Assembly (NCBI GenBank): GCA_027624855.1
Contig: JAQBTQ010000012.1
Span: forward strand, 1,724-65,723
Reading direction: 5' to 3'
Source: Bacteroidota bacterium
GTDB lineage: Bacteria > Bacteroidota > Bacteroidia > Flavobacteriales_D > Sanyastnellaceae
Length of the DNA: 64,000 nt
Shown one piece after another: positions 6,791 through 63,911 of this stretch (position 1 is its first letter; each line of letters starts with the position of its first letter). Made by a program: the position numbers and the translations under genes. The notes beneath the pieces are model-generated. The model searched no databases and was not told the origin of the DNA. It was given only the letters and a program-made list of their open reading frames with translations.

Positions 6791-8242
6791 ATGATTCAAA
6801 TCAGCAACTTGATTGGTGGGCAATTTGAAGATCCAATTGACGGAATGTGGATGCCCAATGTGGAACCTGCCACGGGAACTGCCTATGGAAGAATCCCTCG
6901 CTCCAATGCCAAGGATGTAGAAAGAGCGGTTCAGTGCGCAGAATCCGCTTGGCCCATCTGGTCAAGCACACCCGTGGAGGAACGAAGCGCATGCCTTCGT
7001 CGATGGGCACAGTGCATTGCTGAAAATGCCGAAGAATTGATTCATCTTGAATCTCGGGACAACGGAAAGCCGATATCACTTGCGCAGTCTGTTGACATTC
7101 CGCGAGCTCAAAAGAACCTCGAGTTCTTCGCTGGAGCGATAGAACACTTTGCATCTGAAGCGCACATTCCAGCCGGGGCCACACACATCCATTATACCCA
7201 TAGAAAATCCATTGGTATCGTTGGGTGCATTTCTCCGTGGAATCTTCCTCTGTATCTGTTTACTTGGAAAATCGCGCCGGCCCTTGCTGCTGGAAATTGC
7301 GTCATTGCAAAGCCCTCTGAAATTACGCCCATGACCGCGTGGATGTTGTCAAAATGGGCGAAAGAAGCCGGGTTTCCCGATGGGGTATTCAATGTGCTTC
7401 ATGGATTGGGAAACGAGGTAGGACAAGCCATTGTCGAGCATCCAAAAATCAAAGCCATCTCTTTTACTGGAGGAACTCAAACCGGGGCACATATTGCACG
7501 CACTACAGCTGGACAGTTTAAGAAGTTGAGCTTGGAATTAGGGGGTAAAAACCCGGCAATTGTTTTTGCAGATTGTGATTTTGAATCTGCAGTTTCTACA
7601 ACCGTTCGGTCATCTTTTGCGAATCAGGGTCAAATTTGTCTGTGTTCCTCGAGAATTTTAATTGAAGAGAGCATCTATGACGCTTTCCGCGATGCATTGG
7701 TTGAAAAAGCCAGCCGAATCATTCCCAGCGACCCAATGGAACCCACGACCAAAATGGGTGCCGTGGTTTCCGAGGACCACCGGAACAAAATCCTCAGTTA
7801 CATCCAATCCGCCAAAGAGCAAGGTGGTTCCATACTATGCGGCGGGGAAGTGGCTCCAAGCCCGAACGACCGCTGTAAGAATGGTTTTTTCGTGCAACCA
7901 ACCATTATTGAAGGACTTGGGGCTGATTGCTCAATCAATCAAGAAGAAATTTTTGGCCCAGTCATCACCTTGCAACGGTTTTCGAGCGAAACTGAAGCAG
8001 TGGATTTAGCAAACAACAGTGATTACGGATTGGCATGTACGATTTGGACCCGTGACGTAAGTCGTGCACACCGTGTCGCTTCTCAAGTGGAAAGCGGTAT
8101 CGCTTGGATCAATTGTTGGTTGGTACGGGACTTAAGGACCCCATTTGGCGGGGTGAAATCGAGTGGAGTCGGAAGAGAAGGGGGATTTGAAGCGTTGCGC
8201 TTTTTTACTGAAGCACAAAACGTCTGCATTCCGACGAATTAG
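6791..8242 (+). CDS. NAD(P)-dependent aldehyde dehydrogenase family protein
   Basis: 483-aa ORF with the catalytic Glu motif LELGGKNP, the catalytic Cys motif FANQGQICLCSSR, and FTGGTQTG. The specific substrate cannot be assigned from the sequence. Confidence 0.92.
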   Translation: MIQISNLIGGQFEDPIDGMWMPNVEPATGTAYGRIPRSNAKDVERAVQCAESAWPIWSSTPVEERSACLRRWAQCIAENAEELIHLESRDNGKPISLAQSVDIPRAQKNLEFFAGAIEHFASEAHIPAGATHIHYTHRKSIGIVGCISPWNLPLYLFTWKIAPALAAGNCVIAKPSEITPMTAWMLSKWAKEAGFPDGVFNVLHGLGNEVGQAIVEHPKIKAISFTGGTQTGAHIARTTAGQFKKLSLELGGKNPAIVFADCDFESAVSTTVRSSFANQGQICLCSSRILIEESIYDAFRDALVEKASRIIPSDPMEPTTKMGAVVSEDHRNKILSYIQSAKEQGGSILCGGEVAPSPNDRCKNGFFVQPTIIEGLGADCSINQEEIFGPVITLQRFSSETEAVDLANNSDYGLACTIWTRDVSRAHRVASQVESGIAWINCWLVRDLRTPFGGVKSSGVGREGGFEALRFFTEAQNVCIPTN

Positions 8243-8519
8243 AAAATCGAGTCTTGATAACCCCCGTCGAAGAACTGTTCTGAACGTTCTAAATGCACCT
8301 TGTTTCCGTTTGTGAAGAACCAACCGAAGTAGCGGTCAAACCACATTGTCATATCACGGAGTCTAGATTGCATTTTGTCGTGTTTCGAGGGACAAATTAG
8401 TATAGCGCGAACACTTTTTCAACGCTTCAATCTTGAAAAATGTTTTGTCCCATCATGGATTTTTATCGGAAACCTAGCACCTTCGGAGGCTAGGCGTGAA
8501 CACACGGCATCAAAATTTT

Positions 8520-9494
8520 ATGAAAAAAATATTTTACCTCTCTGTTCTTCTGTATCCCTTGCTATTGCTGCAAAGCGGATGCGTTACCATGAAACAATTC
8601 GACGAACTTCAAATGGACCTCGACCAAATAGCAGAAGAAAATCGACGACTGACATTATTGAATCAAGATGGTGAAATTGAACGCCGAGAATTGACTGGAA
8701 CGGTCGAAGTACTCGAAAAAACCAATTCTGAATTGATTTCGGATACGACGCGACTGAATCGAGCTCTTTTTGAAGCTCAAGAAGAAGTAAATCGACTGGA
8801 AAATTTGAATGACGTCCTCACTTCTGAAAGTTCGTCACGCATGGCGGCCATCAACGATGAAAACCGGGCCCTTTTGGAAGAGTTAAGCCGAAATAGAGCT
8901 GCACTTCAAGTCCAAGAAGATGATTTGCATCAATTGAATTCAGATCTGCAGACGCGTGAGGCGGAGTTGGCAAACCGATCGGCCAGAATCGAAGAATTGG
9001 AAGGGCTATTGTCCGCTAGAGATGCTGCGGCACAAGCATTGCAGACTCAGCTTTCAGAGGCATTGTTGGGATTCGCAGACAAAGGTCTCACAGTCGAGCA
9101 ACGCAATGGAAAAGTGTATGTAAGCTTAGAGGCTCAATTGCTTTTCCCTTCGGGAAGCACTGCAATCAATAGCGACGGTGAAAAAGCATTGCAAGATTTA
9201 GCTCAAGTCGTGAGCAATCAAGAAAACCTCGAGATCATCGTTGAAGGGCATACCGACTCGGATCAATTGCGATCGAGTATCATCCCTCGCAATAATTGGG
9301 AATTGAGTGTGCTGCGATCAACCGCAGTTGTGGAGATATTGACCGCAGCTGGCGTACAACCGGAAGCACTTTCCGCGTCTGGAAGGAGTGAATTCCATCC
9401 GATTGACGCCAATGACAAAGCGAAAAATCGACGGATTGAAATCGTGCTGGCACCGAACTTAGATGCCCTGTTTGATCTCATTCGATCAAACTAA
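8520..9494 (+). CDS. OmpA-family lipoprotein with a long coiled-coil region (MotB/Pal-like C-terminal domain)
   Basis: The ATG at 8520 gives MKKIFYLSVLLYPLLLLQSGC (lipobox). The central region is heptad-rich. The C-terminus has an OmpA-like peptidoglycan-binding motif (IIVEGHTDSD...NWELSVLRSTAV...GRSEFHPI...NRRIEIVL). The GTG at 8496 in the ORF track is less likely to be the start. Confidence 0.85.
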   Translation: MKKIFYLSVLLYPLLLLQSGCVTMKQFDELQMDLDQIAEENRRLTLLNQDGEIERRELTGTVEVLEKTNSELISDTTRLNRALFEAQEEVNRLENLNDVLTSESSSRMAAINDENRALLEELSRNRAALQVQEDDLHQLNSDLQTREAELANRSARIEELEGLLSARDAAAQALQTQLSEALLGFADKGLTVEQRNGKVYVSLEAQLLFPSGSTAINSDGEKALQDLAQVVSNQENLEIIVEGHTDSDQLRSSIIPRNNWELSVLRSTAVVEILTAAGVQPEALSASGRSEFHPIDANDKAKNRRIEIVLAPNLDALFDLIRSN

Positions 9495-9535
9495 ATTCCT
9501 TAAAAAATTCCTGAAGTACTCAGCTCAATGGCTGT

Positions 9536-10552
9536 TTACTGAATCTCCATTTGGAACGTTCCTTGAGACAGGTTCATGCTTTGGCCTGTCATACCAATCA
9601 CGGTTCCCATGAATGTCCCTACAACAAATCCCCCTGGCTGGGCATCCACATATGTAATGTCCACTGTAACCCCACCACCAAAGTTGGTGCTGTATCCATT
9701 TGCGGAGGGGTCAGCATAAGAACACGATGACCCTGTGGCCACAGAGCACTGCACTTGCGCTCCAGCAATCCAACCCGTAATCGGCTGCTCCAACACCAAG
9801 GCGATACCAGCTCCCGTCGCTGTCAATCCAGTGATTTCGATGGTCGATCCATTCATCTCCGCCATCACACCCACTTCCCCTACCAGCGTGGTTCCGTTTG
9901 CTTTCCAAGTCAAAATAGACTCGCATTCTGGACAAAATTCTCCTCCACAATCAATGTAAAGCTCATCTCCATCCATTATGCCATTGGCACAATTCACCCC
10001 GTTTGGACAAGGACCACAAGTGACGTTGGGGTTGTCGCATGGCAAGTAAATATTCAATTCATAATTACCCCCGCAATCCACGCCAATCTCATCACCATTC
10101 ATTAAATCATCGCAACAAGTTGGACAAGGCTCGCAATCAGGACCTCCGCAATCTACCCCTTGCTCTAAGCCATTGAGCAACCCGTCACCACAGAGTTCCC
10201 CGCAAGCAACACCCGTATCGCCACCACAATCGATTCCGGTCTCGCCAGGATCCTGAACCCCATTGAAACTTGGGTCACAAGGATCGCATTCACCCCCACA
10301 ATCCACCCAGGTTTCACCTAAAAGGGCGTCATACTGACCGTTTTCGCAAGGATCACATGCTGGGCAAATCGGCCCTCCACAATCGATCAACTCTTCACCA
10401 TTATTCAATATTCCATCAAAGCAATTTTCTGGAATTAAGTTGTCATCATTGAGGCATCCCGTGCCCAATGCTAGCACCATCACGAGTGCAGATAAAAATG
10501 AAAAAGAAGTCGATTTCGTCATCGGGATTGAATTAAAGCGCTTCATCAGCAA
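9536..10552 (-). CDS. Cys-rich lipoprotein with six DCGG repeats and a C-terminal beta-rich domain
   Basis: Signal and lipobox read ...VLALGTGC. There are six repeats of the G-(D/E)-E-x-x-(I/V)-D-C-G-G-x2-C-x2-C type. The C-terminal ~125 aa contain only one Cys. I do not recognise a family. Confidence 0.78.
   Translation of the reverse strand: MLMKRFNSIPMTKSTSFSFLSALVMVLALGTGCLNDDNLIPENCFDGILNNGEELIDCGGPICPACDPCENGQYDALLGETWVDCGGECDPCDPSFNGVQDPGETGIDCGGDTGVACGELCGDGLLNGLEQGVDCGGPDCEPCPTCCDDLMNGDEIGVDCGGNYELNIYLPCDNPNVTCGPCPNGVNCANGIMDGDELYIDCGGEFCPECESILTWKANGTTLVGEVGVMAEMNGSTIEITGLTATGAGIALVLEQPITGWIAGAQVQCSVATGSSCSYADPSANGYSTNFGGGVTVDITYVDAQPGGFVVGTFMGTVIGMTGQSMNLSQGTFQMEIQ
9923..10423 (-). 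repeat. Six tandem DCGG Cys-knot-like modules (coding repeat)
   Basis: The six copies are IDCGGPICPAC, VDCGGECDPC, IDCGGDTGVACGELC, VDCGGPDCEPC, VDCGGNYELNIYLPC and IDCGGEFCPEC, spaced about 25-40 aa apart. Confidence 0.8.
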
Positions 10553-52559: not shown

Positions 52560-54542
52560 ATGTCTAGGTCAACTTTTGCTTTGTGGTTGTGCATCGTCGG
52601 TATTGGACTGACATCCTCGCACAGCCAATGTCCTACTTGTCAAGTGGATATCAATTGCAGCTCTGACAACGGTTTTCCAACCATTTGCCCAGAATCCCTA
52701 CCAAGTGCGACTGTATCGGAACCTTACTTAGAAACCATCACGTTCTATTTGCCCGCAGAAGTCGTTGACCCAGGATCCGGTGTTACAGCAGCGCTCAATA
52801 GCGTGACCATTACTTCAATCATTGGCGTCCCGATTGGTTTGTCTGTCGAATTAGACGACGCTGACGGCATCTACTACCCGGCAAGTGGCCAGACTTCGGG
52901 TTGCGCCAATGTTTGTGGGACTCCGCTCATCGACGGAACCTTTGAAATGGTCATCAGCATTTCTGCCGTAGCATCCGCATTCGGAATAGAACAAGTTGTT
53001 ACCGATTCGTTTCCATACTTGCTCGTCGTGAATGCAGGCGAGGGAGGAAGCAGTACATTCTCGTTTACTCCGTCCACCGGGTGTGGAGCTTTGCTTGCTG
53101 ATTTTCAGGCCTCTCTGTCCGGAAATCCAAATCAAATAACTACCTACAATTGGGATTTTGGAAATGGCCAATCGGGATCTGATGCGCTAGTAAACGAAGT
53201 GAATTACGAGGATCCAGGTGTGTTCAATGTCACCCTCGAAACAACCATTTCAGATCAGCTCTTGACTCAAGTCACTTTGAATTCTACCGCTGGCGGAGGC
53301 TGGGATGATGGATGGTCACCAGCGCCAGACCCGTATTTTGTGCTGAGTGATGCTGCGGGAGGCAATGTCTTTGTTTCCAGCGTGGCAGATGAAACGTATT
53401 CTGCCACTTGGAACGGGCTGAACGTGGTATTGGCAAATCCTCCTTACACCATCACCTTTTATGACGAGGACCTTTTTCCGGACGATGACTACCTCGGCTC
53501 CATGAGTTTCACGCCAAATGGCTCAGGAACGCTCGACTTAAATGCAGATCCGAGCTATGGCCAATTGACCATAGGATTGCAGACGGCATTGAATACCATT
53601 GACACTGCAGAAGTCATTGTTAGTCCCCTACCAGTAATCGACATTGCATGGAATTCAACGATGGATACCCTGGTTTGTAGCGGTGAATCATTGATACAAT
53701 ACGATTGGCATTGGGGTGACTCACTTCAGTTTTCCGGGAGCGATTCAACCTTCGCGCCCCTAATCAATGGATGGTACCGCGCGATAGGGACAGATTCGAA
53801 TGGCTGTTCTGGGGTAAGCGACAGCCTTTTGTTTTGCGCACCCGATGCTTCATTCGCTCTCAATCTCAGTTTGGGTGAACTTCCGGAAGTCGTTGTGGCA
53901 GATGGCAATTTCGAAGCCTTCGTTTGGACCTTTAACGGACAATCCTCTGAAACCATACCAGATGGATACTGGCCGACAGATTTCAGTGGCTGGTACTCAG
54001 CGATGGCTTGGGACACATACGGATGCCCATGGAACAGTGATTCTGTGTTGGTCTGTTGGCCGCTTAACCAACCCATCATCACCGAAACCGCCGAAGGGTT
54101 ATTGAGCGTAACTCCTGAATTCCCCTTTTACCAATGGTGGTTTAACGGCGAACCCATTCCTGGTGCAACCGATGCGACCTTCGAAAACACCGGACCAGGA
54201 TTGTATGCGGTTTCTGTGACTGACTTCGAAGATTGCAACGGGGTGATCAGCGAGGACTGGGTGGTGGTCGGAATCCCTATCGAAGGGGACTCAAAAGCAA
54301 CACCCTCTTGGTTGGTTTATCCCAATCCAGCGAGCGAGGCATTAACGGTGTCGTTTGCTGAATCCAATGGCGCTTTCGAAGTGCAAGCGTTGGATGTTCA
54401 TGGCAGGGTGATTGAACAGATTCAACTGGTCGATGGGATGCAATGGAACATCAGCACATGGCCTTCTGGGGTTTACTTCGTGTCGGCGCGTTCAATCGGA
54501 TCGAACACGACTTTGCCATCATTACGTGTCATCAAGAAATAA
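52560..54542 (+). CDS. T9SS-sorted secreted protein with a PKD-like domain
   Basis: Signal peptide; the PKD signature YNWDFGNGQSGSD...VNYEDPGVFNVTL; the C-terminus VYPNPASEALTVSF...GVYFVSARS is a T9SS tail. Confidence 0.82.
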   Translation: MSRSTFALWLCIVGIGLTSSHSQCPTCQVDINCSSDNGFPTICPESLPSATVSEPYLETITFYLPAEVVDPGSGVTAALNSVTITSIIGVPIGLSVELDDADGIYYPASGQTSGCANVCGTPLIDGTFEMVISISAVASAFGIEQVVTDSFPYLLVVNAGEGGSSTFSFTPSTGCGALLADFQASLSGNPNQITTYNWDFGNGQSGSDALVNEVNYEDPGVFNVTLETTISDQLLTQVTLNSTAGGGWDDGWSPAPDPYFVLSDAAGGNVFVSSVADETYSATWNGLNVVLANPPYTITFYDEDLFPDDDYLGSMSFTPNGSGTLDLNADPSYGQLTIGLQTALNTIDTAEVIVSPLPVIDIAWNSTMDTLVCSGESLIQYDWHWGDSLQFSGSDSTFAPLINGWYRAIGTDSNGCSGVSDSLLFCAPDASFALNLSLGELPEVVVADGNFEAFVWTFNGQSSETIPDGYWPTDFSGWYSAMAWDTYGCPWNSDSVLVCWPLNQPIITETAEGLLSVTPEFPFYQWWFNGEPIPGATDATFENTGPGLYAVSVTDFEDCNGVISEDWVVVGIPIEGDSKATPSWLVYPNPASEALTVSFAESNGAFEVQALDVHGRVIEQIQLVDGMQWNISTWPSGVYFVSARSIGSNTTLPSLRVIKK

Positions 54543-56792: not shown

Positions 56793-57650
56793 TTAAGCGC
56801 GGCCCAGGATTTCTTCCACGTTGCCTTGAATGGTTTCGCACAAGGCATCCAACGGCAAATCGTTCTCGTCCACTCCGAACGGATCCTCAATTTCCTCAGC
56901 GATAAGCTCAACGCTAACCAAGATGTAGAATACCAACATGACCACCGGCACGCTCCACCACGCAAACGTCGCCACAAACCCGATGGGCAACGTAACCACA
57001 TAAAGGAAAATGAATTTCTTCAAGAACATGCTATAGCTGTACGGCACCGGCGTTTTGAGGATGCGCTCGCAAGCGCCTAGGATATCGACCATACGCTCGA
57101 GGTTTTGGGCAATGAGCCAATGTTGTTGGTCCGTGAGGTCACCGGTATTGCGCATGGCATTTGCCTGGCGTTCCATGCCCTGCGCCCAAGCATTGGGCAC
57201 GTGGGTAGCAGCAGCGAATTCAGCGGAAGCTGGCGCTACGGGATCGCCTGGCTGACCGGGTCGCAGGTGATCGCGGAGAGCCTTGACGAAACCGGGAATG
57301 GCCTCTGCGAAATGAGCATGCGCCGTGTGGTCATCCGAAAACTCACGGACACGAATGGCTAGGGTCCTTGAAACGTTGACCAAACCGCCCCATTGCTTGC
57401 GGCCTTCCCACCATCGGTCGTAGGCCGTATTGGTTCGGAAAACGAGGAACAGCGACAACACGAAGCCGAGGAGGGAGTGCACCACATTGCTCACTTCCAT
57501 CGGCTCTTCCAAGACCTCAAGTTCAATGTAACAAATTCCCGTTGTGAACACCCCCATCGCCGCCATCGCAGGCAACAACTTGCGGATAACCTGGCGGTTA
57601 TAGGCGTGAAAAATGAGGCTGAACCAACTTTTGGGATTGTAGTGAATCAT
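56793..57650 (-). CDS. Bestrophin-family (UPF0187/YneE) ion channel
   Basis: 285-aa ORF with LSLFLVFRTNTAYDRWWEGRKQWG (the family signature), four transmembrane segments, and a C-terminal EEIEDPFG.DENDLP. Confidence 0.88.
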   Translation of the reverse strand: MIHYNPKSWFSLIFHAYNRQVIRKLLPAMAAMGVFTTGICYIELEVLEEPMEVSNVVHSLLGFVLSLFLVFRTNTAYDRWWEGRKQWGGLVNVSRTLAIRVREFSDDHTAHAHFAEAIPGFVKALRDHLRPGQPGDPVAPASAEFAAATHVPNAWAQGMERQANAMRNTGDLTDQQHWLIAQNLERMVDILGACERILKTPVPYSYSMFLKKFIFLYVVTLPIGFVATFAWWSVPVVMLVFYILVSVELIAEEIEDPFGVDENDLPLDALCETIQGNVEEILGRA

Positions 57651-57657
57651 CGAAATT

Positions 57658-57665
57658 CAAAGATA
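57658..57665 (-). promoter_or_regulatory. -7 promoter box (TATCTTTG) immediately upstream of the bestrophin gene
   Basis: TATCTTTG on the minus strand ends 7 nt before the ATG at 57650. This implies a leaderless or near-leaderless transcript that is separate from the upstream operon. Confidence 0.4.
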
Positions 57666-57710: not shown

Positions 57711-59555
57711 TCAATGGATGACCACCGCCTGCAAGTCTTCTGATAGAGAAATCGGACTATCCTTTTTTGGATTCAGTTTCAGCTCTCCATTTTGAATGAA
57801 GCCAACGCAAGTATGATCCAGATTGAGGCAGGCCACAACCAACTGCCAATACGTATTGATTTGATCAAATGATTTTTGGTGGTCTTGATAAACCTTGAAA
57901 GGAACCACATTGATTTTTGCGCCTTCTTTGCTGAAAAGTTCATCGAACACCTGACTCAATGGTGGGTTTTCTGCCAATTGTGTCATCAACAAAGACGATA
58001 GCTCATCGCTGACAATGAACTCGCTGCGGTCTTGCTCCGCAACAAGGGATTTTTTTGACCCATCATTCAGTTGCAAAATCACACGCATAGCCTCATTATG
58101 CTCACTTTCACGAGCAGCATTCTTTAGATGGAGCGTCTGCATCAAAGAGAGTGTATCAGCATCCGCATCATCCAATCGATCATTGTAACCCAAGATCAAA
58201 GATGCACTCACTTCATTCTGTTGGATGTGATCGACAAACCCCTCAGTGCTATTACTTTCCAACCTCTGGATTTCAGTTCTCATCGAGGAAGGTGCATTCG
58301 AAAAATCAGGTGCATCACTCACCAATGAATCCCGGTAGAATACCTTTATGGAAGAATCTTCCTGCAAAAAAGGCAAGAGGTTATCCATGATTTGCTGGCC
58401 AACATTCGACCAGCCCAGCACCAACAAATCCGATCGTTCCTTCAGCTGCAATTGGACCTCTGAATCCTCAACCTTGTTCAGCGCTTTTTCCATTGCATCA
58501 TGGTCAAAAGCCTCGAAATTGAAGTCATCATCGGTGGCAATCACAATCAGTTCATCGTCCGCTTGAATCAACCGATTCTTATCCGGATTGATGCAAACCC
58601 CACCCGACCCTTCTCGAATCCCAATCAATGAGACATTACCCAATTCAACCATAGCTTGCTTGTAGGACTTGCCTTGAACTCGGGTGCTGGGGAAGAAATA
58701 AATCTCGTCGCCATCAAAATCCAAAAAGTCCATGACAACCTCAGTTACGAATTGATTGCGAATTGCCTGAGAAGTGATGGTCGCGATGATCCCATCCTTG
58801 TTGACCGGTAAAATGGGGCTGCCCGACAATGACGATAGCACCTTGATGTTTTCGGTTGAACTGAATTGGGCTACAATTGGAATGTCCTTACCCTCCGTCA
58901 GCTTCCGCAATGACAAGATGGTGGTTTCCGTATTAAATTTTGAATCGACGACATCGTCCAACACGATGATGCTTCGCGCTTGATTTGGATTTACAATGGA
59001 AAGTTCAGATTCCAATCCAATGTTTCCCGAACGGGTCAAAATTCGAATGCCTCGTTGATTAGGATATTCCAGGTCAATTTTACTTCGAATCTCTGAGTTT
59101 TTCATCCCATTGATGCAAACAATGGTCGGTTTTGCTTGATTTTCATTGGCCAAGGTAATCTCAGAGAAAATCTTAAAAATCGTGGTGTTCCAGCCCACAA
59201 TCACATAATGATCTTCGTCAATGATGAAGGATCTTCCTGTATTCAATTTGGCCACGACGCCCGCTACTTTCGCAGTGAGGAAGGCAATGATGCTTCCTGA
59301 GATTGCAACACCCAAGGCCCAATACAGAACGTCTAAAATTCGCTCTTGGTAATTGTCTCCGGAACCGATGTCGATGATTTCGGATAAGCTCGTCCACCAA
59401 TGATCGCCAAAACGGTCTTGACTTGAAACGCCCAATGCGATTTCAAATAAAACCATCAAAGCAGCCGTTAATGCTGCTAGGAGCAACATGAAGAGCACAA
59501 AATTTGAGCTCTTCGTTATGCCATTCTCAAAGTGATACTGGAGCTTCTTCAGCAT
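57711..59555 (-). CDS. CASTOR/POLLUX-like putative ion channel with tandem RCK-like domains
   Basis: Two N-terminal transmembrane helices flank a short re-entrant-like stretch (WWTSLSEIIDIGSGDNY). Two Rossmann-like starts follow, HYVIVGWNTTIF and LLVLGWSNVGQQI, matching the ILxLGWS pattern of CASTOR/POLLUX homologues. The call is from memory, not from a search. Confidence 0.7.
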   Translation of the reverse strand: MLKKLQYHFENGITKSSNFVLFMLLLAALTAALMVLFEIALGVSSQDRFGDHWWTSLSEIIDIGSGDNYQERILDVLYWALGVAISGSIIAFLTAKVAGVVAKLNTGRSFIIDEDHYVIVGWNTTIFKIFSEITLANENQAKPTIVCINGMKNSEIRSKIDLEYPNQRGIRILTRSGNIGLESELSIVNPNQARSIIVLDDVVDSKFNTETTILSLRKLTEGKDIPIVAQFSSTENIKVLSSLSGSPILPVNKDGIIATITSQAIRNQFVTEVVMDFLDFDGDEIYFFPSTRVQGKSYKQAMVELGNVSLIGIREGSGGVCINPDKNRLIQADDELIVIATDDDFNFEAFDHDAMEKALNKVEDSEVQLQLKERSDLLVLGWSNVGQQIMDNLLPFLQEDSSIKVFYRDSLVSDAPDFSNAPSSMRTEIQRLESNSTEGFVDHIQQNEVSASLILGYNDRLDDADADTLSLMQTLHLKNAARESEHNEAMRVILQLNDGSKKSLVAEQDRSEFIVSDELSSLLMTQLAENPPLSQVFDELFSKEGAKINVVPFKVYQDHQKSFDQINTYWQLVVACLNLDHTCVGFIQNGELKLNPKKDSPISLSEDLQAVVIH

Positions 59556-59566
59556 CGGACGGAAAC

Positions 59567-60343
59567 TTACAGGTGTTCTTTTCCTTCACGAACTCGCTTC
59601 AAGGCATCTTTCTTTGGTTGGTCCGATAAGTACCATGAATTCTCTCGCTTCTTAACAGCTATCTCCTTGTAGAGCAGCAGCAACTTTGGTATGGATTCCT
59701 CATCCTGAGCCAGAATTGCTTTATTGATGACCATATCCAAAAGGTTATTCCATTCTGAAACCTCGTCATTATACTTACTGTTGTTACTTGTCCATTCTGA
59801 TGATGGCTTAGCCTCGAAAGATTGGTTAAACGTCTTCGTGCTCAGTAGCGCAATGGCCTCATTGAATTTTCCGTCAGTGCATAGAACATCCAAAGCATTA
59901 GGTATCGCTTGATCATATATGAATCCACAGCCCATCTCATCACATGCCTTCTTTGCAAACCCATACTCCCCTCTTCCGACATAGTAGGTTACTTCAGAAC
60001 GCAAAATTTCAATCATTGCATCCAAATGCGGAGCCATTGGAGCTCGGCCCCAATCTTCTCCTGATTCGATCTTTTCTAGCTGCTCGTCTTTCGTTGTGCT
60101 ATACAAATCCCCATGTTGATAGTAAAAGTTATCCGGCAAGCAATTAGCAATCAAACGAGCCGATTCGAAGTCAAAGGCGAAAAGCGCATCCTTCACACTT
60201 TTGAACTTAATGACTTCATCATCGAATTTTTCTTCGATGCATTCATTGGCGATTTCCATAGCATCATCGTAATCACTGCTACAGCCGAATAAGCCTAAAA
60301 CTCCAGCCGTTATTAGAAAGAAAATATTCTTGGTTCTTTTCAT
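59567..60343 (-). CDS. Lipoprotein C of the triad, helical, unassigned
   Basis: 258-aa ORF with the lipobox VLGLFGCSS. It is predicted mostly alpha-helical and contains seven Cys after the lipobox Cys. It ends 11 nt upstream of the channel gene. Confidence 0.7.
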   Translation of the reverse strand: MKRTKNIFFLITAGVLGLFGCSSDYDDAMEIANECIEEKFDDEVIKFKSVKDALFAFDFESARLIANCLPDNFYYQHGDLYSTTKDEQLEKIESGEDWGRAPMAPHLDAMIEILRSEVTYYVGRGEYGFAKKACDEMGCGFIYDQAIPNALDVLCTDGKFNEAIALLSTKTFNQSFEAKPSSEWTSNNSKYNDEVSEWNNLLDMVINKAILAQDEESIPKLLLLYKEIAVKKRENSWYLSDQPKKDALKRVREGKEHL

Positions 60344-60354
60344 AATGGGTTCTT

Positions 60355-61536
60355 TTATTCTGATCCGTCAAATGGGTCGTGTTCTCCGAGGTGAAAAACG
60401 CGGCGAATCCAAGGTAATTGATCGTATTTGTATTTGTTGAGCAATTTGCGGTTTCCTTCAATGTCCGCTTTGGCTTTCATGTTGTCTTTGTTTTTCAGGT
60501 ACTCGAAATTGGCCATGACTGAATCCCTGCGGAGTTCCTGATTTGCCTCTATTTGAGACACTTTTAACTCAAACTCTCGCTCTTCACGCTCCCAGGCAAC
60601 TTTGGCTTTAGGATCCAATTTGGCCGTGTACTCGTTATAGATTTTTTGCGCTTCAGGGTAGCAAGTTGAGGCCCGGTCAATCATCGCATAGTAGCTCATC
60701 GCCTCGGGATTGAATCCTGAAGCACTTGGGTCGTTCATTTTACCCAACTCTGCCTGCATCTTAGAAAGCAATTCATTGCAATTTTCTGTAAGCGAAGCAT
60801 TGAAAAATCGAATCTTCGCTTCCTTCACTGAAGCGAAGCACTCCGCAGCTTCCATCGGTATTACGCTCACCAAGGCGTAAGCAGCGTCGTAATTGCGAAG
60901 GGCTGCTTCGGCTTCGGCTTCGGACAAAATCGCCGCGCAATTGGTGGTGTAGTATCCAATCGCCTTTTCTTCAGCATCGCGCAAAAATTGAAAAAAGCCT
61001 TCATCGTCAAATCGAACTTCACGAAAAGCATTGATGAACGATTTGGTCGGACTATCGCCCACGCCCTTCACTTCAAACGCGTATGAAGCCATGACCATCT
61101 CATTTTCTGCATCAACTGCGAGCAGATTTACTTCATAGGTATTCATGTATTTCGGAGGCGCCGTGGCGGTCACGTTTTCCGATAACAAGGTTACGCTAGG
61201 GCCAATGATGAATTTGGGGTTGGATTGCCCCGCTCCTCCATATGCGACCTTCGCAATGGCGGTATTTAATCGTGACTCCAACATTTGTTTGCCAGATGCA
61301 CCAAGGGATGGGTAATCTGGAACAAAAGGCGTAAGTTTAATGGCCAGCTCAAAATCTGGAGTATAGGATGCCGCTCCGGTAGCGCTCTCCGCGGATGCCC
61401 CAGAACCGTCTCCAAACGATTCCGTGGTCCCCGATGTTTTTGCAGTGGCCGAGGTGTTCGTGGCCTCTGTTGAAGATTCCCCCCCTGAACAGGCCAAGAG
61501 GAAAATCGAAAGGCTTGTGTAAATCAGGTACTTCAT
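60355..61536 (-). CDS. Lipoprotein B of the triad, unassigned
   Basis: 393-aa ORF with the lipobox IFLLACSGG. A ~45-aa Ser/Thr/Gly/Ala-rich tether is followed by an alpha/beta region and a charged C-terminal coiled-coil-like region. It ends 11 nt upstream of lipoprotein C. Confidence 0.7.
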   Translation of the reverse strand: MKYLIYTSLSIFLLACSGGESSTEATNTSATAKTSGTTESFGDGSGASAESATGAASYTPDFELAIKLTPFVPDYPSLGASGKQMLESRLNTAIAKVAYGGAGQSNPKFIIGPSVTLLSENVTATAPPKYMNTYEVNLLAVDAENEMVMASYAFEVKGVGDSPTKSFINAFREVRFDDEGFFQFLRDAEEKAIGYYTTNCAAILSEAEAEAALRNYDAAYALVSVIPMEAAECFASVKEAKIRFFNASLTENCNELLSKMQAELGKMNDPSASGFNPEAMSYYAMIDRASTCYPEAQKIYNEYTAKLDPKAKVAWEREEREFELKVSQIEANQELRRDSVMANFEYLKNKDNMKAKADIEGNRKLLNKYKYDQLPWIRRVFHLGEHDPFDGSE

Positions 61537-61544
61537 GAACTGTC

Positions 61545-62585
61545 TTACTTGATGATTACCAGCGCATCACCGATGCTTTGCGTACGGTTTGAAACAGAAT
61601 AACTGCAAGACTTTTTCAGTAATCTGCGTAAATCATCTGCAAAATCGTAAGCGGTAATCTTATTGCCATTTTCATCTTGACTGTAGATTCTCACGCTTGT
61701 GAAGGCCATCTCAGACGCAGTATTCTTCTGCATTTTAAACGATTGATTGATCGTATTGTCCCGCAACCAATCATTGACGTTCGCAGCAATTTCGTCTCCG
61801 CCACATTCAGATTCCATCGTCAGTTCTGATCCTTGATCAATGGCGACTCGGAACGTAATCTCCACACCGTTGGCAAGTAAGTTCGCATAATGGTTCACGA
61901 TCTGTCCTTGGAATTCAGGAATTGACTGAGCAAAATCCGATTTCAACAAAGAAACTGTTGTGCCTGAACCCTCTTCATTTTTCAAGCCCTCGCGAGCAAC
62001 AGAAGCGACGCTTTTGACGGTATAGGCATCGATGCACTTCACCGCGTAAGTCAATGATTCCGAAATGGACCGTGATTTTTCATCGCGAGCCATTTGGTAG
62101 TCCAATTCCATAATGTAATCCGGCCGGGCTGTGCTCAACAATTCTGAACGGGCATCACGCCATACCCCCGTTGCCTCATCCATGGCGTTGGCGTTTGTGA
62201 GGTTCTTGAGCTGCTGTTCCAAATCTTCGAGGGGGAACCCAACATTGGCAAACTCCTCTTGGATCGCTGCTACCGCAAACTTGAGGTCACCGTCATTGAT
62301 GAATGCTCCCTGATAATCACGAACGTACATCGTCACGCCATCGCTCTTTCGCTCCTCCAAGAACCCCAATCGCAGTAACAATGCATCGGAAGGCAATACC
62401 ATGATTGAAGGCATGGATTGTGAAATGGCATTGCTTGAAGTCTTGGCTGTTGCAATTTGGTTTTGTGTCGGCATCAATCCAGTGTTCATGGATTCCGATT
62501 CGTCAGAACCACCGCAAGAGATTAAGCCTGCAACCATGAATGTGATCATTCCAGTGATCCAGAGGGGTTTCAAGTTTGTTTTCAT
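61545..62585 (-). CDS. Lipoprotein A of the triad, unassigned
   Basis: 346-aa ORF with the lipobox AGLISCGGS and a polar tether. Two alpha/beta halves are apparent (...SIMVLPSDALLLRLGF... and ...GVEITFRVAIDQ...). It ends 8 nt upstream of lipoprotein B. Confidence 0.7.
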   Translation of the reverse strand: MKTNLKPLWITGMITFMVAGLISCGGSDESESMNTGLMPTQNQIATAKTSSNAISQSMPSIMVLPSDALLLRLGFLEERKSDGVTMYVRDYQGAFINDGDLKFAVAAIQEEFANVGFPLEDLEQQLKNLTNANAMDEATGVWRDARSELLSTARPDYIMELDYQMARDEKSRSISESLTYAVKCIDAYTVKSVASVAREGLKNEEGSGTTVSLLKSDFAQSIPEFQGQIVNHYANLLANGVEITFRVAIDQGSELTMESECGGDEIAANVNDWLRDNTINQSFKMQKNTASEMAFTSVRIYSQDENGNKITAYDFADDLRRLLKKSCSYSVSNRTQSIGDALVIIK

Positions 62586-62662
62586 TCTGTTCGATTAATT
62601 GAAGTGCAAGATACTCTCTTTTCTTACGAATGAATCAAGTGTTTCGGTCCGAACTCTTCGAT

Positions 62663-63835
62663 TCATTCACAATCCAAAAAAGCAAGCAGCTGATGGCGAT
62701 GCTGTAGTACATACCGAAGGTTGGTTTCGCAAATGCTCAACACCTGTCGCCACTTCATATTCGATGGGATTTTCTTCGATTGGTAGAGGAAAACGGGTCC
62801 GAATTGATTGAATGACTTTCTTTTTGGGTAGCGTTCTGAAGCATCAAGCGCTGGGGAAAAATCAAACCACATCTTCTTTTCTAACAAATTCTGTGCGAGC
62901 GCTCGAGTGCGCTTCCCGGTGTTATCCTCTACGACCATACGGTATGCATTTCCTTGGATTTGAATCCCAATGGATAAATCGGGTGCTATGACATATTTGA
63001 AATCAAGAAACCCTGTTGCACGCGTCATGCCAGAATTGACGAAAACCGTTGGAGAGCTCGCCTGCCAATCAATGGCTGTGCGAAACGGAGCAACTTCGAA
63101 TTCTTGATAATTCAGTTGGTTCCAGGCCTCAAACGCCAATCCGGCATACTTCTTTTTCAGATAAAAATCATCGAGTCGTAAGTCGTCCAGAGTACGAAGT
63201 AAAGGGTCGCTATGAACACTCCAAAAATCGAAAAGTTCCGATTGGTTGATTTGAGCCTGCTCATCGACCTTCAACAATACCTTGACCAAAATCACATAAT
63301 CCGCTAAAATTAACCGCGTATAATCGTCCGAGGTGATGGCAATGCACTGATTGATTAAAGCCAAAACCTCCTGAAACGTCATCTTTTGCCAATCGGGCAT
63401 GGGCTGTTCAAATTCGCTCAGGCTCAGAAGAATGCATGTGGAATTTTCCGGGCGTTTTTCTTGGTATTTCTCGAGTTGCTCCATTCTTGGCAAACTCTTC
63501 ACTTTGTTCTCAATCCAAACGTGCCACATTCCACTTTCTCGATCTGTTCCCTGAAGATTGGGGTCGTGAAACTTCAACCAGAGGTCGATGTTTTGTTTCT
63601 CCCGCTGAACCGCGTCCTTCATAACCGGATCAAAGACGAAGTGGCTTACTTCAGGGGGCAGTGAAGTGCGAAAAAATTCCGTGACCAACCCTTTTAATTC
63701 CTCCTGCTCGAAGAGCCATGCCAAAAAATTCGAGTGAAACAATTCTTTGGAGCTCAAAGAAAAATTGAACAGCGGACTCGATTTAAGTGACTTCAACTCT
63801 TGGATCAGTTCTTGAACATGCTTGTCTCGAATCAT
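62663..63835 (-). CDS. PD-(D/E)xK nuclease family protein (PDDEXK_4-like)
   Basis: The N-terminus LFNFSLSSKELFHSNFLAWLFEQ is the characteristic family motif. A candidate catalytic core follows (...NIDLWLKF...WHVWIENKVKS, i.e. D...E-x-K). Confidence 0.72.
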   Translation of the reverse strand: MIRDKHVQELIQELKSLKSSPLFNFSLSSKELFHSNFLAWLFEQEELKGLVTEFFRTSLPPEVSHFVFDPVMKDAVQREKQNIDLWLKFHDPNLQGTDRESGMWHVWIENKVKSLPRMEQLEKYQEKRPENSTCILLSLSEFEQPMPDWQKMTFQEVLALINQCIAITSDDYTRLILADYVILVKVLLKVDEQAQINQSELFDFWSVHSDPLLRTLDDLRLDDFYLKKKYAGLAFEAWNQLNYQEFEVAPFRTAIDWQASSPTVFVNSGMTRATGFLDFKYVIAPDLSIGIQIQGNAYRMVVEDNTGKRTRALAQNLLEKKMWFDFSPALDASERYPKRKSFNQFGPVFLYQSKKIPSNMKWRQVLSICETNLRYVLQHRHQLLAFLDCE

Positions 63836-63903: not shown

Positions 63904-63911
63904 CAAAGATA
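63904..63911 (-). promoter_or_regulatory. -7 promoter box (TATCTTTG) upstream of the PD-(D/E)xK gene
   Basis: TATCTTTG on the minus strand lies 68 nt upstream of the ATG at 63835. Confidence 0.35.

Follow-up and report, generated by a model that had tools for sequence, protein, structure and literature searches.

The window considered here is a stretch of 64,000 nucleotides (nt) from the genome of a Bacteroidota bacterium (contig JAQBTQ010000012.1 of assembly GCA_027624855.1), in which four consecutive genes on the minus strand encode three predicted lipoproteins and an ion channel: lipoprotein A (346 amino acids, aa; 61545-62585), lipoprotein B (393 aa; 60355-61536), lipoprotein C (258 aa; 59567-60343) and channel D (614 aa; 57711-59555). 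The tight packing for which an initial annotation of this DNA had singled out the cluster is borne out by the list of open reading frames (ORFs), which gives gaps of 8, 11 and 11 nt, and A, B, C and D are real genes, each with many conserved homologues. The A-B-C trio is a genuine, conserved and autonomous envelope lipoprotein module, and D itself is another member of an already annotated kind of channel.

The proteins of the cluster

The signal peptides with lipoboxes that had been assigned to A, B and C are found (LISC, LLAC and LFGC, respectively) and are kept in most homologues; all three agree with the pattern [LVI][ASTVI][GAS]C, and lipidation is predicted for each. A lipobox is present in 54 of 64 homologues of A and in 55 of 67 homologues of B, and the homologues without one are probably mis-started because ORF calls were ATG-only. 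The long polar tethers reported for A and B fit the stretches of the AlphaFold 2 models with predicted local distance difference test (pLDDT) values below 50, which cover residues 20-36 of A and 13-54 of B.

Lipoprotein A has its lipobox at residues 21-24, with Cys24 encoded at nt 62514-62516, a polar tether at approximately residues 25-57 and then two alpha/beta domains (model pLDDT 79). It is a full-length member of Pfam family DUF6175 (PF19672), with residues 58-346 aligned to profile positions 2-293 of 293 (E 3.2e-64; 217 bits against a Pfam gathering cut-off of 23), and 163 homologues were found. The family is uncharacterised, and a literature search on DUF6175 / PF19672 found nothing; the initial annotation, which called all three lipoproteins unassignable, is corrected in that A does belong to a named Pfam family. 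Members of this family differ in their setting. The Pfam-like DUF6175 protein of gut Bacteroidales (L113 in our numbering of loci and lineages; E 2e-117) has no lipobox in the locus read, unlike A, and the distant relatives in L104 and L106 have ordinary signal peptides at the inspected N-termini; the operons of gut and distant members are also larger and include neither C nor a channel. A Foldseek comparison of the A model with viral structures gave only a weak LptE-like match.

Lipoprotein B has its lipobox at residues 13-16 (Cys16), followed by a disordered tether at approximately residues 17-60, an alpha/beta domain at approximately residues 65-175 that leads into a TPR/PPR-like helical domain, and then a charged tail, also helical (AlphaFold 2 model, pLDDT 77). 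The charged tail, which the initial annotation had also noted, corresponds in the model to K/E/R-rich helices at residues 309-331 and 345-369, after which comes a near-invariant C-terminal motif, Y..D..PW....F. B has no Pfam, NCBIfam or PADLOC assignment and is 100% identical to hypothetical protein O2818_06205 of a 'Bacteroidetes bacterium' metagenome-assembled genome at NCBI. A profile search of 1.84 billion representative proteins returned 1,704 clusters at 50% identity (E<=1e-3), and ten sampled members of the family are without Pfam domains, barring a fused F5/8-type-C domain and one weak LpoB match; B therefore defines a large family that has neither a Pfam nor an NCBIfam model and could be proposed as a new one.

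Lipoprotein C has its lipobox at residues 18-21 (Cys21) and a repeat-like sequence that can be read as helical hairpins, with a conserved Cys35/Cys68 pair in an alignment of 18 homologues. Its TPR matches are sub-threshold only (TPR_Slam, E 0.12; TPR_8, E 0.3, in Pfam), with no TPR profile match above threshold; C has no Pfam, NCBIfam or PADLOC assignment, and sequence and profile searches found no relative in the PDB. Paralogy among A, B and C is not detectable, as hhalign comparisons of A with B and of C with B gave signal-peptide similarity only.

Channel D has two transmembrane (TM) helices, TM1 at residues 18-41 (nt 59433-59504) and TM2 at residues 73-95 (nt 59271-59339), with a WW-containing P-loop-like segment between them (HWWTSLSEIIDIGSGDN, residues 52-68, nt 59352-59402). 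The start of its first RCK domain is VGWNTT (residues 120-125, nt 59181-59198) and that of the second is LGWSNVG (residues 380-386, nt 58398-58418). D matches Pfam Castor_Poll_mid (E 2.9e-21) and the PDB structures of CASTOR (6o6j, E 5.6e-26) and DMI1 (7vm8, E 2e-25) with both RCK halves covered, and residues 106-345 and 490-558 align with the CASTOR gating ring. Its homologues at 28% and 42% identity are named 'CASTOR/POLLUX-related putative ion channel' by NCBI. The presence of Castor_Poll_mid, gating-ring homology and two tandem RCK domains classes D as a predicted CASTOR/POLLUX-type channel, in agreement with the two-TM, two-RCK architecture first recognized from its GW(N/S) starts. A literature search on Castor_Poll_mid in bacteria found nothing.

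With the plant nuclear-envelope channels CASTOR, POLLUX and DMI1, D shares Castor_Poll_mid and a tandem pair of RCK-like domains whose GW(N/S) starts are degenerate. The plant channels contain more TM helices than the two of D, and their N-terminal region is long where that of D is very short; D also differs in its degenerate filter, which varies among orthologues. The filter reads IDIGSGD (IGSGD core) in D and IGQGA or IDGSSD in orthologues, with no canonical TVGYG-type K+ selectivity filter, and because of this degeneracy D is probably not K+-selective. The isolated pore segment has no direct PDB match; BLAST (E 1.5e-5) and jackhmmer link the pore to MthK-like channels. The pore and first RCK domain of D are distantly homologous (~24-27% identity) to the 342-aa MthK-like channels of other trio loci, which have one RCK domain, a TVGYGD filter and a PDB match to 8djb (E 2.5e-15). 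D differs from MthK-type Ca2+-gated K+ channels in carrying a second RCK domain in the same chain and in lacking a canonical K+ filter.

On the minus strand between 56.7 and 64 kb, the Bacteroidota -7 promoter consensus TAnnTTTG has only two exact matches. One (TATCTTTG, 63904-63911, minus strand; a consensus match only) lies 76 nt upstream of the start of a minus-strand PD-(D/E)xK nuclease-family gene (PDDEXK_4; 390 aa, 62663-63835), which is separated from A by 77 nt. The other (57658-57665, minus strand) lies 15 nt upstream of the start of a minus-strand gene for a bacterial bestrophin-family channel (56793-57650; Bestrophin_2, E 7.5e-78), located 60 nt downstream of D. No TAnnTTTG match stands ahead of A, B, C or D. 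Scans for sigma-70-type promoters and terminators gave chance-level counts, with none in the tiny intergenic gaps of the cluster; a promoter or terminator dividing the lipoproteins from the channel, which the initial annotation named as a refuting result, has no consensus match between the four genes. At this level of consensus matching, the motifs suggest that the nuclease gene and A-B-C-D are one transcription unit, of which the PDDEXK_4 gene may be the first gene and whose 3' boundary is likely marked by the bestrophin gene with its own motif. An imperfect 20-nt inverted repeat on the minus strand (62628-62668) overlaps the PDDEXK_4 stop codon. Its stem forms, no U-run follows and the z-score of a 95-nt fold (-1.0) is not significant; the hairpin could be a weak terminator or attenuator of read-through from the nuclease gene into A. 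An invertible promoter or phase variation was rejected, with no convincing inverted repeats flanking the upstream region, and GC composition has no clear anomaly along the cluster.

Conservation of the trio and recurrence of the channel

Conservation was assessed in 19 genome loci fetched with the A alignment and 77 metagenome loci fetched with the B alignment, with extra contigs added by exact-protein look-up; grouping of the B sequences gave 42 lineages, 30 of them informative. Essentially every sufficiently long locus (~100 loci in the 42 lineages, from aquatic Bacteroidota) has the three lipoprotein genes side by side, in gene orders that include ABC, ACB, ACCB, ABCC and CACB, and C is present in nearly all trio loci and is often duplicated. 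The A gene followed by the B gene is also an adjacent pair in distant relatives (L104, L106, L111, L112 and L113), and a B-family gene comes directly after the DUF6175 gene in all five distant loci inspected. Because the trio clusters in nearly all loci and the A-B order is kept in distant relatives, the conserved unit is the trio and, most of all, its A-B pair. The B family (~1,700 clusters) and DUF6175 constitute a widespread uncharacterised envelope gene pair of Bacteroidota.

Plasmid collections gave no match, and phage collections gave only MT836698.1 (L113; 9,077 nt, from human faeces), which is labelled 'UNVERIFIED: Bacteriophage sp.' and contains a seven-gene operon, [WG_beta_rep][410][155][192][160][DUF6175][B-like], together with an AAA_14/DUF4143 gene. 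This sequence has the look of chromosomal DNA from Bacteroidales, not of a phage.

A P-loop channel gene occurs on the locus in 9 of the 30 informative lineages, and in eight it lies no more than 1 kb downstream of the trio on the same strand; the ninth lineage (L080/84/85) has a 399-aa 2-TM channel two genes, or ~2 kb, upstream. Four channel architectures occur, the 399-aa 2-TM form being one of them. CASTOR-like channels of ~610 aa occur in the clade of the window and in L088/89, MthK-like channels of 342 aa in L007, L051/56, L052 and L086, and a Kv-like channel fragment in L079; in addition, an Ion_trans+MscS-like gene stands behind a truncated D in the L020 group. All channels in the fetched loci are within 2 kb of the trio, and channels account for 7 of 137 near and 0 of 90 far non-redundant genes (one-sided Fisher p = 0.027). 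Channel-positive and channel-negative loci are interleaved in the B tree. Among channels of one type, sequence identity follows that of the trio; the L088 trio, although nearer to the MthK-type clade, is paired with a CASTOR-type channel. In the closest sister clade, L026 and L028 have a full D 11 nt after C, as in the window, and the trio is directly upstream in two of four sampled D homologues (41-48% identity). To the earlier question of whether the trio always travels with an RCK channel, the answer is that adjacency recurs but is not obligatory: the channel link is recurrent but facultative, and a functional link is plausible. No description of a trio-channel association was found in the literature searched.

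Interpretation of the cluster

The top Foldseek matches of the A and B models in the PDB come from one shared group of outer-membrane lipoproteins (GNA1162, DUF330/PqiC-like, CsgG, PelC, LptE, FlgT and HpaA). Those of A are GNA1162, DUF330/PqiC-like, FlgT, CsgG and PelC (E ~1e-3), and those of B are CC_3750, HpaA, CsgG, DUF330, LptE and PelC. It is the alpha/beta domains of A and B, behind the disordered tethers, that give these weak yet consistent matches to the class of PelC, CsgG, LptE, PqiC/DUF330, GNA1162 (DUF799), LpoB and FlgT. LpoB carries a long disordered linker, and A and B, predicted to be lipid-anchored, resemble it in this respect. Like known outer-membrane scaffold lipoproteins, A and B are encoded beside helical, TPR-like partners; a lipoprotein operon of GNA1162/CsgG-like/DUF4810 composition exists in Proteobacteria. 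A differs from these scaffold lipoproteins in having two domains, and B in its large helical domain and conserved C-terminal tail, and the cluster differs from PelC, LptE and CsgG systems in having no associated polymer-export, lipopolysaccharide or curli genes. Literature on GNA1162 / DUF799 consists of vaccine or proteome lists without function. The invariant cysteines of all three lipoproteins point to an oxidising compartment. The three proteins most probably face the periplasm from the outer membrane, beneath which we infer from analogy that they would assemble into a hetero-oligomeric scaffold or ring. The cluster would be a variant of known outer-membrane lipoprotein assemblies, with a modest chance of being categorically new.

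We tentatively favour, with somewhat less than even confidence, the interpretation that an autonomous envelope lipoprotein module is accompanied here by an optional, co-transcribed CASTOR-like channel with which it shares an envelope role. A and B would each present an alpha/beta domain of the LptE/PelC/CsgG/GNA1162/LpoB class on a flexible tether of 35-45 residues, B and C would add helical, TPR-like scaffolding, and the trio would be co-transcribed with D, possibly from a promoter ahead of the PDDEXK_4 gene. D would be an inner-membrane tetrameric P-loop cation channel gated by its cytoplasmic double-RCK ring, an optional partner of the trio and not a fixed subunit, and trio and channel would act in the same response, putatively ionic, osmotic or mechanical envelope homeostasis. 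A shared physiological role is argued because adjacency is recurrent, with swaps between channel types. The stoichiometric assembly that the initial annotation read from the tight spacing is unlikely: a fixed complex is disfavoured because the channel is lost in close relatives and because D has minimal periplasmic exposure, showing only a short turret to that side, and gaps as tight as those of the window are not the rule.

Several observations weigh against the favoured interpretation. In ~70% of informative lineages the trio has no adjacent channel. Elsewhere in the sister clade of L026 and L028, D is cut after residue 263 in L020, L021, L025, L029 and L030, with a remnant that is 94% identical, and is absent in L022, L023 and L031, with the trio intact in all of them. 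In L020 an Ion_trans + MscS-like channel gene of 454 aa (8267-9631) comes after the truncated D (7368-8204), and both are absent in other contigs with an identical B protein. Other channel-bearing lineages have a trio-channel gap of 85-350 nt or a small gene in between, so that a separate promoter is possible, and no trio lies within 6 kb of two of the four D homologues sampled. The distant A-B pairs have ordinary signal peptides and lie in larger operons of secreted proteins, for example [WG-repeat 580 aa][410][155][192][160][A][B], and no channel is near those inspected. The fold matches of A and B are weak (probability up to 1.0, E ~1e-3 and target-normalised TM-scores of 0.23-0.52 among top matches), there are no Pfam or NCBIfam matches at E<=1 that would make A or B members of the CsgG, PelC, LptE, GNA1162 (DUF799) or LpoB families, and PDB sequence and profile searches gave no match to those lipoprotein families at E<=10. 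Finally, the genes could be neighbours through synteny inherited in a single broad clade and not through a functional link.

On this last view there is no coupling, and trio and channel are ancestral neighbours in aquatic Flavobacteriales-like lineages that were compacted into one transcript here, which we consider unlikely, though by no means far-fetched. In its favour, most lineages carry the trio without a channel, the sister population shows loss or truncation of D beside an unaffected trio, and channel and trio identities co-diverge as they would for vertically inherited neighbours. The trio-less D homologues have GIY-YIG, DUF2779 and DUF481 genes upstream, families that elsewhere are found beside the trio as well; this recurrence of GIY-YIG, DUF2779 and DUF481 around both trio and channel suggests a shared ancestral neighbourhood. 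Simple inheritance is harder to reconcile with differing channel architectures in the same downstream slot, as with the CASTOR-type channel beside the L088 trio, with adjacency that is kept at ~42-50% protein identity, and with the restriction of channels in the fetched loci to positions next to the trio. The loss of D in the sister population is natural variation through which the dispensability of the channel could be examined. A functional link would offer a handle on the purpose of prokaryotic CASTOR/MthK-type channels and on how Bacteroidota couple envelope state to ion flux; no precedent for inner-membrane P-loop channels recurrently behind an outer-membrane-type lipoprotein module was found in the literature searched. 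Without such a link, the trio remains a well-defined target for characterisation.

Readings in which the trio does something other than share an envelope role with an optional channel have lower probability. It is improbable, although worth stating, that the trio is the outer-envelope arm of an undescribed trans-envelope module with an interchangeable partner (a CASTOR-, MthK- or Kv-like channel or a nuclease); if so, the lipoproteins would signal the condition of outer membrane or cell wall (mechanical, osmotic or phage damage) and the effector would alter ion flux or cut DNA. Slightly less probable again is a defence-type system, in which the lipoproteins sense phage or mask the surface and a variable adjacent effector, channel or nuclease, executes the response. 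Different nuclease and defence-type genes do flank the trio in different lineages, including a GIY-YIG gene that matches PD-T4-3 (E 5e-73), DUF2779, KAP NTPases that match PifA/QatA, and TerB-like proteins. Known defence systems have variable effectors, which the swapping of channel and nuclease neighbours resembles, and within the cluster TAnnTTTG occurs only upstream of the nuclease gene, hinting at a five-gene unit. The nuclease gene itself matches PDDEXK_4 in Pfam (E 5.6e-10) and, over its N-terminal half only, PDC-S26 in PADLOC (E 1.2e-13). However, a PDDEXK_4 gene upstream of the trio is confined to the clade of the window (the window, L026, L028 and L108-110), A, B, C and D have no PADLOC-DB v2 matches at E<=1, and the nuclease-plus-membrane-effector unit suggested in the initial annotation finds weak support at best. 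Specific enrichment of defence-type genes at the trio is not shown, as genes at least five positions away in the same loci match PADLOC models at least as often (among them a type I methyltransferase, SoFic and PDC-S04). Housekeeping genes such as those for RNase R and MiaE lie upstream of the nuclease gene on the source contig, the nucleases have no obvious route for a signal from periplasmic lipoproteins, the distant A-B operons have neither nuclease nor channel, and the single unverified fecal contig is the only copy among phage and plasmid sequences. There is also a slender chance, the smallest that we assign, that A-C are surface-exposed, flipped lipoproteins with a role in adhesion, nutrient capture or a surface coat that is unrelated to ion flux. 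Many Bacteroidota lipoproteins are flipped to the surface by an export signal of acidic residues after the lipid-bearing Cys; C starts with C-SSDYDD and some homologues are acidic just past this Cys, the long tethers would also suit surface display, and collagen-like genes and genes for cargo of the type IX secretion system (T9SS) lie nearby in some loci. A conserved surface-export signal was nevertheless rejected because the acidic residues are not conserved: A homologues have a mean of 0.9 D/E at positions +2 to +7, with at least two in only 17%, and residues past the Cys are mostly G/S. Moreover, the matched fold class consists of periplasm-facing outer-membrane lipoproteins, and the distant homologues are plain secreted proteins without a lipid anchor.

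Other genes near the trio and the channel

The bestrophin gene after D makes two ion-channel genes in succession in the window, and it does not follow D in L028. CASTOR-like channels repeatedly adjoin a gene of family DUF481, putatively of the outer membrane (L116 2080-7839, L117 1197-7839, L115 6001-8680, and L088/L089), and two of these channel loci also lie beside a pair of GIY-YIG (PD-T4-3-like) and DUF2779 genes. A secreted protein of 660 aa, encoded on the plus strand of the window at 52560-54542, has a typical T9SS sorting domain at its C-terminus, in keeping with the Bacteroidota origin of the DNA; on the source contig (L108) the same gene was called as 597 aa with Por_Secre_tail.

Three unrelated types of locus encode collagen-like repeat proteins (Pfam Collagen) a few genes away from the trio or from the A-B pair (L020 401-2884, L022, L023, L062 with a 1547-aa ORF, and L104 12242-14374). 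A conserved gene of 149 aa without a Pfam match comes directly after the trio in L007 (9570-10019), L053, L061 and L062, and in L007 it sits between the trio and the MthK-like channel; a D...Q-x-K motif recognized by eye resembles those of small PD-(D/E)xK nucleases. Freshwater loci of ACB/ACCB type (L015, L016, L057, L059, L071, L076 and L078) have a conserved protein of 164-179 aa encoded ~212-308 nt after B, with two hydrophobic segments and zinc-ribbon-like CxxC pairs, which might be an alternative membrane partner of the trio.

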